Origin: Candidatus Stahliibacteriota bacterium
GTDB taxonomy: Bacteria; Hydrothermota; Tepidihabitantia; SM23-42
Direction of reading: 5' to 3'
Assembly (NCBI GenBank): GCA_030602565.1
Contig: JAUVZL010000004.1
Coordinates: 12,518-76,517 of the forward strand
Length of the DNA stretch: 64,000 nt
The position numbers and the translations under genes are program-made. A model generated the notes under the pieces. It made no database searches, was not told where the DNA came from, and saw only the letters and a list, made by a program, of their open reading frames with translations. Shown in pieces: positions 16,291 through 19,023 of the stretch (position 1 is the first letter of the stretch; each line of letters begins with the position of its first letter).

Positions 16291-16425
16291 GTAAGCAATG
16301 AATTCTCTGCTCTTAACAATTGGCAAAACCAATAAATCCTATACAATGTTGTGGGGAGATCAGAAGATAAAGCAAAATAGATTGTGCAATTTGGACAAAA
16401 GTATCTATCGATAATCAATCTTTTA

Positions 16426-16453
16426 TTGACAAGTATGTCATTTTAATTATAAT
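16426..16453 (+). promoter_or_regulatory. Promoter of tRNA-Asn
   Basis: Perfect TTGACA-N16-TATAAT ending 8 nt before the tRNA. Confidence 0.85.
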
Positions 16454-16461
16454 AGCACGAT

Positions 16462-16827
16462 TCCTCGGTAGCTCAACGGTAGAGCATCCGGCTGTAACAA
16501 AAGCAGCTTCCACGAGAAATCGTGGTTGAAAAATCGGGTGAATTCAGGGAAGCCTAAGTTCTGATTTTTGTCATTGCGAGCGCGAGCGAAGCAATCTCAT
16601 ATTGGAATATGGTAATCCTGAGCCAAGCCCCGCACTTTTGATAAAAGTGCGGGGAAGGTGCAGAGACTATTCCGTAAGGAAGTACTTTTCGCTCAGTGCG
16701 GAAGGGAAGCGCCCGATCCCGCAATACCGGTAATAATTCGGTATCGGGAATGAGATAGTCCATTCTCTGATGAAAATCAGAGGTCAATGTAACCGGAGGG
16801 TTGCAGGTTCGAATCCTGCCCGAGGAG
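16462..16827 (+). tRNA. trnN: tRNA-Asn(GUU), exons 16462-16495 and 16790-16827, intron-containing; CCA not encoded
   Basis: Joined exons give TCCTCGGTAGCTCAACGGTAGAGCATCCGGCTGT|TAACCGGAGGGTTGCAGGTTCGAATCCTGCCCGAGGAG: 7-bp acceptor stem, TCCGG/CCGGA anticodon stem, 7-nt loop CT-GTT-AA, GTTCGAA T-loop, G discriminator. Confidence 0.95.
16496..16789 (+). ncRNA. Group I self-splicing intron (294 nt, no ORF) between anticodon positions 35 and 36
   Basis: P1 GCTGT/GCAGC with U.G at the splice site; P2 CCACGA..TCGTGG; P3 TCGGGTG/CGCCCGA; P AATTCAGGGAA; Q AATCCTGAGC; R CAGAGACTA; S GATAGTCC; P9 CTCTGAT..ATCAGAG; terminal G at 16789. Confidence 0.93.
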
Positions 16828-16930
16828 TTATTATTTCTCTTAACGAGGGTAGTGAGTTTAGAGAAATATAATCTCGAATCCCGTGATAACGGGTGAGAGA
16901 TACCTTTTTGAAACTCTGTTTAAACAAATA

Positions 16931-17209
16931 ATGGCAAAGATAATCCCACAACCTTGGTTTGTCTATATTGTTGAATGCAAAGATAAATCACTTTATGTGG
17001 GGATTACTACAGAAATTGAAAAGAGAATCAATGACCACAATTCAGGAAAAGGTTGTCACTATACTAAATACAGAAAGCCCGTTAAGCTTTTATTCTATGA
17101 AAAACATAAGAACCGCAGTTCAGCAGTCAAAAGAGAGCTGGAGATCAAAAAATTCAGCAGAGCGAAGAAGTTTGATCTAATAAAGAATGATTTCTTGAGT
17201 TGCAAATGA
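16931..17209 (+). CDS. Small GIY-YIG nuclease (UPF0213/YhbQ-like)
   Basis: FVYIVECKDKSLYVGIT..RINDHNSGKG..YTKYRKP..AVKRELEIKK; ATG at 16931 preferred. Confidence 0.9.
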   Translation: MAKIIPQPWFVYIVECKDKSLYVGITTEIEKRINDHNSGKGCHYTKYRKPVKLLFYEKHKNRSSAVKRELEIKKFSRAKKFDLIKNDFLSCK

Positions 17210-17240
17210 GATTATTAAGAGTATATTCGTAAATACCCCT

Positions 17241-17347
17241 CTGGCTTTTAATAAAAGCCCTTATTTTCTCTCTTGAGCTTTACGGGGATTAAACTCAACT
17301 TCTGCTTGCGTATCAGCTGATACTCTTGTATAAACAGCACATTTCAT
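17241..17347 (-). pseudogene. Serine recombinase N-terminal remnant, frameshifted and truncated
   Basis: MKCAVYTRVSADTQAEVEFNPRKAQE contains the catalytic YxRVS motif; a shifted frame continues EKIRAFIKSQ; the direct frame stops at 17261-17263. Confidence 0.75.
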
Positions 17348-17570: not shown

Positions 17571-18347
17571 CTAATCAATTTTAGGAGGGTAGAACACTCC
17601 CAAAATCATAAAATTATCGCGGAAGCGTTTCATGTTACCAACAAAGAAAAAAACATCATTTTTATCTGAGCACATTCGGGTTAACCAACGTTCTTTTATC
17701 TTTTCTAACAGTAAACCCTGCGATTTATATTTCATACGCCAGTCACGGTAAGCTTGTCCTATTTCCCAATCAATGATAGGATAGTTATGTCCAGGGCATG
17801 AGGGTTCATTATGACAATAGAATTTGTAGCGGAAATCATAAGGTATATTCTCAATCACCTCTTTATTTCTATCAAAGAGACTAAGCTGTGCATAGCATGA
17901 TTTTCTTGCCATCTCATCTTTTGGTTTTGCCTTAAGGCATTCAAAATCTACATTATGTGGTCTAAAGACTCCCAAAGATTTATCATTTTTCTTGCTTTTT
18001 CTCAATATTTCGCACATAGACTTATCAAGTGTAGAAAGAACCATTCTTTTTCTTCTATCCCATTTATTTCTTGTATCTAAATAACCTAATACTTTAATAC
18101 TACCTGCATCGATTTTGTAACTTTCTGGTCTTTTATCATCCTTTGGTTTATGTACTTTTACTTTAATTATACTATATTTTTTGAATTTTTTATCTTCATC
18201 TAAATCTCTAAAGGATATGGGATAAAGCCTTATCCATTTTCTTTTGTCAGTATCTATGCCTGCAACACAGACAGTTTCGCCATACTTTCTGCTCGGGTTA
18301 GGATATGCTTTTACAGTGATGAGGATTGTCTTTGTTTCATCATACAT
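17571..18347 (-). CDS. Conserved hypothetical partner of DUF488 (probable OB-fold nucleic-acid-binding protein)
   Basis: TVKAYPNPSRKYGETVCVAG..WIRLYP, DKRPES, IDWEIG, FFVGN, GVFYPP; 6 nt downstream of the DUF488 gene; AT-rich. Confidence 0.7.
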   Translation of the reverse strand: MYDETKTILITVKAYPNPSRKYGETVCVAGIDTDKRKWIRLYPISFRDLDEDKKFKKYSIIKVKVHKPKDDKRPESYKIDAGSIKVLGYLDTRNKWDRRKRMVLSTLDKSMCEILRKSKKNDKSLGVFRPHNVDFECLKAKPKDEMARKSCYAQLSLFDRNKEVIENIPYDFRYKFYCHNEPSCPGHNYPIIDWEIGQAYRDWRMKYKSQGLLLEKIKERWLTRMCSDKNDVFFFVGNMKRFRDNFMILGVFYPPKID

Positions 18348-18353
18348 TTACTT

Positions 18354-18788
18354 TTAGATATGTTTAACCATAAGACCGTTATCATCGATTTTCATTACTT
18401 CTTTTGCAACAATACTACGATGACATTTGTCAGGAAATCGTTCATAACACATAAGACAACAATTTTCACCTAAGACAATTTCATACAGTTCTTCAATAAT
18501 TTGTGCCTGAGATTTTATATATTTGTGATATTCTCTAAAAAAATAGTCATAATCACCATCAGATTTTAGCTTATCTCTTATAACCTTAGGACTTCCTAAA
18601 TCTCTAAAATGAATGTACTGAATACCGTTATTTTCTAAATACTGAGACAAATGTGTTTTTGAAAATCCTTTTTTTCTACTGATAGGAATCTCTCTGACAT
18701 CTATAAGGATTGATATGCCAAAGGTTTTGAGCTCGCAAATAAAGTCATCAAGATTCCTTTCTTGGTAACCTATTGTGTATAGCCTCAT
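18354..18788 (-). CDS. DUF488 family protein
   Basis: LYTIGY, LIDVREIPISRKKGFSK, LGSP, LMCYE..CHRS; ATG at 18788 has a GGAGG RBS. Confidence 0.9.
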   Translation of the reverse strand: MRLYTIGYQERNLDDFICELKTFGISILIDVREIPISRKKGFSKTHLSQYLENNGIQYIHFRDLGSPKVIRDKLKSDGDYDYFFREYHKYIKSQAQIIEELYEIVLGENCCLMCYERFPDKCHRSIVAKEVMKIDDNGLMVKHI

Positions 18789-19023
18789 TGGTTTCCTCCA
18801 TAACACCACTTTGCATGACAAAGAGGTATTATCCGTATCGTAATATATCATATATATTACGATTTGTCAAGCAGAATTTATTAATTTACACTCAAAAATT
18901 TCCCCTCTGCTCCCTTACCCAGACGAGAGGCGTTGAAAGGAATCTTTTAATAAAAAAATTCAATCCAAGCGGTCGCAATTCATTAATAAAAGAAAAATAA
19001 AATAAGGAAGTCGCTAAGGCTCG

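Follow-up and report, generated by a model that had tools for sequence, protein, structure and literature searches.

The window analysed here is a stretch of 64,000 nucleotides (nt) from a Candidatus Stahliibacteriota bacterium (GenBank assembly GCA_030602565.1, contig JAUVZL010000004.1, positions 12,518 to 76,517 of the forward strand), and all window positions below are counted within that stretch. The genome, that of an uncultured sediment bacterium of the phylum WOR-3, is a metagenome-assembled genome (MAG) of 2.74 Mb spread over 104 contigs; its completeness is 96.15% and its contamination 2.64%. The locus in question is a tRNA-Asn(GUU) gene, trnN, that lies in two pieces. The 294 nt between the pieces are very probably a group I intron, which splits the genome's sole gene for this tRNA between anticodon nucleotides 35 and 36. 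The locus is composed of the following features.

16426-16453, forward strand: promoter-like site of the sigma-70 type, TTGACA-16 nt-TATAAT, 12 of 12 consensus positions matched, ending 8 nt 5' of the tRNA
16462-16495, forward strand: tRNA-Asn exon 1, 34 nt; 5' strand of the acceptor stem, D arm, 5' strand of the anticodon stem, loop nucleotides 32-35
16496-16789, forward strand: probable group I intron, 294 nt, no open reading frame (ORF), last nucleotide the terminal (omega) G16789; placed by the Rfam model RF00028, the ARAGORN call i(36,294) and structure counts
16790-16827, forward strand: tRNA-Asn exon 2, 38 nt; U36, the remaining anticodon loop, 3' strand of the anticodon stem, variable loop, T arm, 3' strand of the acceptor stem

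Exon 1 ends with U35 of the GUU anticodon, and exon 2 carries a G discriminator and does not encode CCA. Judged by its consensus match, the site at 16426-16453 may be the working promoter of trnN. When the exons are joined by script, ARAGORN reads the product as tRNA-Asn(gtt) with a cloverleaf, and the unspliced DNA yields the same gene, i(36,294), once introns are allowed. Both results agree to the nucleotide with the original prediction, made from the letters of the window, which had placed the cuts after U16495 and after G16789. That prediction had also named the intervening segment a group I intron and foreseen that standard tRNA finders would miss the gene. The covariance model RF00028 (Intron_gpI), whose gathering score is 50, gives 94.2 bits over 16434-16782, and the E value of 5.7e-23 puts the match far beyond chance. 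The split trnN is missed by the Rfam tRNA model and also by default ARAGORN, whose single call in the window is a tRNA-Val at another place.

The position of the junction can be fixed independently of these programs. Two genomes of the same genus (L016 and L017) have an uninterrupted trnN that scores 75.5 bits on the Rfam tRNA model RF00005, and the joined product of 72 nt is identical to it at 71 of 72 positions. This match to a natural intron-less gene sets the junction between CUGU and UAAC, and the expected joining of GT to TAA is thereby borne out.

The fold of the intron was assessed on 17 distinct copies, the one in the window and 16 relatives, with an explicit P1-P9 model of 78 pairs and 1318 cells. 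Pair counts were compared with controls in which the partners were slid by 1-3 columns and with 500 shuffles. Standard pairs fill 97.0% of the 1318 cells in the model and 32.9-44.7% in the slid controls. Both-sided (compensatory) change occurs at 33 of the 78 pairs, as against 6-10 in the slid controls, and none of the 500 shuffles equalled any observed measure. The covariation is confined to P2, P5a, P6a, P7.2, P8, and P9. Every helix of a P3-P9 core with its P3/P7 pseudoknot could be placed, and P3, P4, P6, and P7 are backed by conservation. The helices are listed below in order of their first strand.

16490-16508, forward strand: P1, exon nucleotides 16490-16495 with guide 16503-16508; 7-nt loop; 6 pairs invariant in 17 of 17 copies
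16510-16525, forward strand: P2 hairpin with GAAA loop; 5 of 6 pairs change on both sides
16533-16540, forward strand: P3 5' strand, pairing with 16710-16717; 8 pairs, 100% paired, 6 invariant and 2 with one-sided change
16544-16549 with 16616-16621, forward strand: P4; invariant or one-sided change only
16553-16554 with 16611-16612, forward strand: P5; invariant or one-sided change only
16558-16562 with 16604-16608, forward strand: P5a; 4 of 5 pairs change on both sides
16622-16623 with 16658-16659, forward strand: P6; invariant
16628-16654, forward strand: P6a hairpin; 8 of 8 pairs change on both sides
16663-16669, forward strand: P7 5' strand with bulged A16664, forming the pseudoknot with 16756-16761; 6 pairs invariant in 17 of 17 copies
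16670-16681, forward strand: P7.1 hairpin; 4 pairs, invariant, nearly letter-identical in phage introns
16685-16705, forward strand: P7.2 hairpin; 6 of 8 pairs change on both sides
16710-16717, forward strand: P3 3' strand, from the pair counts
16718-16748, forward strand: P8 hairpin; 6 of 10 pairs change on both sides
16756-16761, forward strand: P7 3' strand, from the pair counts
16765-16782, forward strand: P9 hairpin with GAAA loop; 4 of 7 pairs change on both sides; followed by 7 nt to the terminal G16789

The hallmarks of group I splice sites are present throughout the set. The U16495•G16503 wobble at the 5' splice site and the terminal G16789, both anticipated by the original prediction, are invariant in all 17 copies. 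The predicted P3/P4/P6/P7 core is likewise in place, together with the two extra hairpins, P7.1 and P7.2, that had been described as IA-like. P7 falls inside the R and S elements of the Rfam alignment and is expected to be the guanosine-binding helix. A model-free prediction with RNAalifold on 10 copies recovers the anticodon stem between the exons as well as P2, P3, P5a, P6a, P7.1, P7.2, P8, and P9, and it also predicts the inner 4 base pairs (bp) of P1, including the splice-site U•G. The pseudoknot is not drawable by this program, and P4 was mis-nested.

The proposed splicing mechanism is taken over from standard group I chemistry. Transcription of trnN would be driven by the promoter-like consensus site (16426-16453). 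The guide GCAGCU (16503-16508) would pair with tRNA nucleotides 30-35 to form P1, leaving U35 in the U•G wobble. A free guanosine held in P7 would then attack 3' of U16495, after which the terminal G16789 would occupy the same site and the exons would be ligated. P10 would amount to at most 1 bp, and the 5-bp anticodon stem formed between the exons probably holds them in register. The inner four pairs of P1 use C32-U33-G34-U35, and CUGU is found in all tRNA-Asn(GUU) genes examined, which would explain why the insertion site stays constant across very different exons.

A ribozyme of this kind could carry out the chemistry and yet depend on a maturase, encoded by the host or by the intron, or on an RNA chaperone to fold in vivo, so that splicing would not be autonomous. 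Protein-assisted group I splicing is well known and has a section of its own in Hausner (2014), and two repeat insertions in peripheral loops of the window copy could slow its folding. However, the core is complete, the GAAA tetraloops L2 and L9 could make tertiary contacts, and neither the window copy nor its immediate surroundings contain a maturase-like ORF. In addition, similar phage introns self-splice in vitro. Dependence on a protein is thus regarded as unlikely.

The consequences of the split hinge on the number of trnN genes. Run without introns, ARAGORN finds 45 uninterrupted tRNAs in the genome, which cover every amino acid but Asn, and RF00028 has one match in the genome, the trnN intron. 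A search of this genome with an intron-less trnN as the query for a second copy gave otherwise only Trp, Lys, Met, and Gly tRNAs. The same search in three single-contig intron carriers (G010, G023, G152) gave otherwise only Lys, Gly, and Met tRNAs. The gene is therefore single-copy as far as the 96%-complete assembly shows, and what the original prediction had put as a condition appears to apply: Asn decoding would depend on splicing. Three further intron-containing calls by ARAGORN (C49, Gly gcc, i(29,181); C71, Ser gct, i(33,153); C98, Gly tcc, i(38,39)) are probably false because they have no RF00028 match.

The arrangement recurs in relatives. A blastn search finds the intron core in 19 of 272 genomes of the phylum, this one included, and all of them belong to one order, with 16 of 30 genomes in family f1 and 2 of 16 in family f2. 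A covariance search of 151 genomes placed 12 above threshold, 8 of them in trnN; these eight are this genome, G025, five more identified by ARAGORN, and G254, which ARAGORN mislabelled and which was recognized by eye. The last six of these eight come from two families that are less closely related, and their introns hold a frameshifted HNH ORF or remnants of one. Of 16 stretches that contain a lineage-specific motif, 15 come from ‘candidate division WOR-3’, ‘Candidatus Stahlbacteria’, or unlabelled MAGs, and ARAGORN called a complete split trnN in 13 of those motif stretches. One motif match, in a Pelagibacteraceae contig with no group I signal, was put down to chance. Of the other introns above threshold in the covariance search, at least one is in 23S ribosomal RNA (rRNA). 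One 23S rRNA gene of another WOR-3 family (L306, genome G227) holds two, at 139-438 and 1501-1758, and four other stretches (L304, L307, L308, L323) have apparent rRNA hosts, as judged by eye.

Some copies of the intron encode a protein. In 3 of the 17 distinct copies (G010, G154, G155) the P1 loop contains an intact ORF of 115 amino acids (aa). The three ORFs are 70-75% identical, share the motifs CxxC, HH, and CxNCHxxxH, and match phrog_2255 (HNH endonuclease) at 108-116 bits. The reading frame runs through P1', P2, P3, and P4 to a TAA stop in P5, so the C-terminus of the protein, its last ~17 codons, is ribozyme sequence from P1' to P5. The window copy has a P1 loop of 7 nt and no endonuclease ORF, and that of G017 holds a deletion remnant of the HNH ORF. 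An endonuclease has been reported for the cyanobacterial tRNA-fMet intron (Bonocora and Shub 2001). The ORF of the present lineage is set apart from it as HNH-family by its PHROG match, by its position in the P1 loop and on through P5, and by its absence from the window copy.

The intron itself is patchy. Among seven other genomes of the same genus, four have the intron, two have an uninterrupted trnN, and one could be scored neither way; uninterrupted trnN is also found in several other genomes of the family. The exact empty junction, 16495 joined directly to 16790 in DNA, occurs on contigs of two sediment metagenomes that also contain the intron. Those contigs match at 85% likeness with sides of 30-35 nt and may belong to different organisms; they are no proof of polymorphism within a species. 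Gain, decay, and loss of ORF and intron form the usual pattern of homing introns. Homing would account for it, and the window copy is probably an ORF-less descendant of a mobile intron.

The architecture of the core sets this intron apart from the group I introns familiar from bacterial tRNA genes. The IC3 architecture lacks P7.1 and P7.2. Twort-type phage introns, which are taken here to be subgroup IA2, have the same helix order as the window intron, similar P4, P6, and P7' elements, and a P9 loop of the GAAA type. Michel and Westhof are said to have defined subgroup IA in 1990 by two extra hairpins, P7.1 and P7.2, which follow P7 and precede the 3' strand of P3. In the accessible text of Hausner (2014), P2, P7.1, and P7.2 are among the elements that distinguish group I classes, the subgroups given for bacteria are IA1-3, IB4, IC1, IC3, and ID, and a structure of the Twort ribozyme is said to exist. 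All four classical bacterial tRNA intron types are placed in subgroup IC3 by the text of Williams (2020, bioRxiv 10.1101/2020.01.27.920355), which names the same hosts, Leu(UAA), fMet, Ile(CAU), and Arg(CCU), that the original prediction had named.

Comparison with phage genomes gave a local likeness. None of 12 records retrieved by blastn from phage genomes covers at least 80% of the query, which leaves no full-length phage relative of the intron in that search. A stretch of 33 nt over the R element and P7.1 is ~94% identical in several phages, namely a Staphylococcus phage with three tandem introns, Pseudoalteromonas phage pYD6-A, where the host gene is DNA polymerase, and Roseobacter phage CRP-7, where it is ribonucleotide reductase. 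These phage introns match RF00028 at 79-95 bits and have the helix order of the window intron, P7.1 and P7.2 included. The three tandem group I introns of the Staphylococcus phage (SapYZU04, L058) occupy 261-1082, ~820 nt of an unannotated stretch. The motif formed by R and P7.1 occurs in at least 119 stretches of metagenome contigs and at least 119 of viral contigs. None of the 119 viral stretches listed has a split tRNA around the motif, and a P7'/P9 motif specific to WOR-3 has no match in viral contigs.

Twort-type introns sit in phage protein-coding genes, whereas the window intron sits in a cellular tRNA. In this it is like the classical tRNA introns, exemplified by those of Azoarcus pre-tRNA-Ile and Anabaena pre-tRNA-Leu. 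Those too are group I introns of the anticodon loop, form P1 from anticodon-loop nucleotides with a U-1•G, end in a terminal G, are patchy among relatives, and probably use the anticodon stem as exon aligner. The window intron is unlike them in its host, tRNA-Asn(GUU), in its site at 35/36 (after loop nucleotide 4), in P7.1 and P7.2, and in its phage-like core; it matches none of the classical sites Leu.3, fMet.2, Ile2.5, and Arg.5. It thus appears to act like a classical tRNA intron while being built like a phage intron.

The same kind of core is found in other split tRNAs. Among the 119 metagenome stretches listed with the phage-like motif, nine lie in split tRNAs, six of them tRNA-Asn(GUU) with the same site and quite different exons, two tRNA-Thr(UGU), and one tRNA-Phe(GAA). 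Both tRNA-Thr(UGU) genes (L083, L141) are split after U33 by an intron with the phage-like R-P7.1 core. The tRNA-Phe(GAA) intron (L106) probably also follows U33, although ARAGORN places it one base later. One contig with an Asn intron encodes a GroEL that is 56-63% identical, at a flat level, to those of 60 WOR-3 genomes with a match (61 sampled), which places the contig outside the sampled WOR-3 lineages. The Asn 35/36 intron is therefore shared by several WOR-3 families and also turns up on contigs that fall outside the WOR-3 lineages sampled. The original prediction had placed Asn introns mainly in Patescibacteria, a statement met with nowhere in the searchable literature, and held that one in an FCB-type genome would extend the range. 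The intron is indeed in this genome, but it is not isolated there, and its rarity had been overrated.

Several observations weigh against reading the locus as a sole trnN interrupted by a phage-type, mobile group I intron. A second trnN outside the 104-contig assembly is formally possible, and transcription and splicing of trnN are deduced from DNA; a search for RNA runs that cover 16300-17300 listed none, and the RNA run from the sample of the best DNA match gave 0 contigs, which speaks neither for nor against expression. In P1, P3, P4, P5, P6, P7, and P7.1 the pairs do not vary or vary in one partner, and so give no covariation support; this invariance is consistent with a conserved catalytic core. 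The core resembles that of Twort-type introns rather than IC3, and the label IA2-like goes by that resemblance and by the subgroup definitions given above. On the protein side, Pfam HNH reaches 18.6 bits against a cut-off of 21.4 in one of the three 115-aa ORFs, and a profile of the three has no match among PDB sequences. In the tree of the introns, copies of genus g10 nest among those of g1, but strong support is lacking for every branch, so the tree does not demonstrate horizontal transfer.

The first two of these observations would also suit a splicing-dead relic. In that case the split trnN would be a pseudogene, and another, uninterrupted trnN that escaped assembly would serve the Asn codons. 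MAGs are often without some tRNA genes, and the present one is fragmented and a few percent short of complete. However, the exons are nearly identical to a functional-looking trnN, compensatory changes in six helices bespeak selection on the fold, and the promoter-like site is a perfect consensus match. Moreover, the three single-contig relatives have no other detectable trnN, and the same arrangement recurs in 19 genomes of the phylum. A relic is very unlikely, and the interpretation of the locus as a sole trnN split by a group I intron is preferred.

Two further features lie within and just beyond the split gene.

16562-16604 (core ~16570-16601), forward strand: P5a-loop insert carrying a repeat whose ends GTCATTGCGAG...GCAATCTC are fixed and whose inner hairpin varies
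16931-17209, forward strand: GIY-YIG nuclease gene, 92 aa, Pfam 73.9 bits, 103 nt downstream of trnN

The GIY-YIG gene might be thought to encode a free-standing homing endonuclease that mobilizes the ORF-less intron in trans, an arrangement termed ‘collaborative homing’. It encodes a GIY-YIG catalytic domain, lies on the same strand as trnN, and adjoins it in 13 genomes. The sole terminator-like site nearby is past the gene, at 17243-17259, and none lies between it and trnN. However, the gene adjoins trnN with or without the intron: it also stands downstream of intron-less trnN in G002, G006, and G020, so gene and intron do not move together. Within the genus, the copies next to an uninterrupted trnN share only 47-49% identity with the window copy. 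A DNA-binding domain was not seen in the 92 aa, and the intron's own HNH gene already explains mobility in the lineage. Mobilization in trans is accordingly judged highly improbable, and the GIY-YIG protein was rejected as the intron's endonuclease. Past trnN and this gene, synteny is kept in only three close relatives. Farther downstream, 17571-18851 on the reverse strand holds an adjacent pair of genes, one for a 165-aa DUF488 protein (105.6 bits) and one for a 258-aa protein whose match to the Dual-OB domain DuOB is weak and stays below threshold (21.6 against 27 bits).

It is more improbable still that conditional splicing tunes the supply of tRNA-Asn: the intron does sit in the sole trnN and persists across several families of the phylum, and domesticated group I introns exist, such as one controlled by c-di-GMP (Hausner 2014, accessible text), but an Rfam scan found no sensor domain or extra Rfam motif, close relatives do without the intron, and the gain, decay, and loss of the ORF follow the pattern of a selfish element.

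The peripheral loops of the window copy have received repeats. The GTCATTGCGAG...GCAATCTC repeat of the P5a loop has 18 copies in the genome by regular-expression search, and contig depth over the insert in three sediment metagenomes is 2558-25793, compared with ~13-130 nearby. One metagenome contig has zero mismatches to the covered flanks of the intron and lacks the 42-nt P5a insert, so the insertion is recent. The insert is also absent from the closest intron copies (L003-L005), and inserts of the same kind with other inner hairpins occupy the same loop in five others (L008, L013, L030, L033, L038). The P6a hairpin (16626-16656) matches a palindromic repeat of 27-31 nt that is found at nine places in the genome and also in relatives.

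Part of this picture has precedents. The number of tRNA intron types was raised from 4 to 21 by Williams (2020), and the 17 further types follow the same logic as the window intron: an RF00028 match within a split tRNA found by ARAGORN, a U-1, and a terminal G. In that nomenclature the window intron would be Asn.4Ug, and given the dataset, Asn is likely among the new types. On the subgroup and ORF content of these types, and on their distribution in WOR-3, the main text of that preprint is silent. Within the searchable text of the literature, which does not extend to the table of Williams (2020), no account of a group I intron in tRNA-Asn was found, nor of the subgroup, the HNH ORF, or the occurrence in WOR-3 of such an intron. 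Some tRNAs in the genomes of Lui et al. (2021) had group I introns, which the accessible text of that paper mentions as a remark only.

The intron can be regarded as a real but fairly ordinary mobile element, and the general understanding of group I introns is unchanged by it. A broader claim is possible, though doubtful when all of its parts are taken together. It holds that the locus represents an undescribed lineage of phage-type (IA2-like) introns in cellular tRNA genes. This lineage would sit at 35/36 in Asn, have relatives in Thr(UGU) and Phe(GAA), and be the obligatory route to the sole tRNA-Asn in parts of WOR-3. In this lineage an HNH gene would be fused in frame to P1'-P5, such that translation and folding compete, and the peripheral loops would serve as landing sites for genome-wide miniature repeats. 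The family would link the introns of phage protein genes with those of cellular tRNA genes. It also provides a natural series of the homing-intron life cycle, from intact HNH ORF through frameshifted ORF, remnant, and ORF-less intron to empty site.

For the organisms themselves, the finding bears on how their genomes are read. Standard annotation shows the intron-bearing genomes as being without tRNA-Asn, so both checks of completeness and inferences about codon usage will be wrong for WOR-3 MAGs and other carriers unless split tRNAs are searched for. It would also mean that, in a whole set of uncultured sediment bacteria, an essential decoding function relies on a ribozyme.

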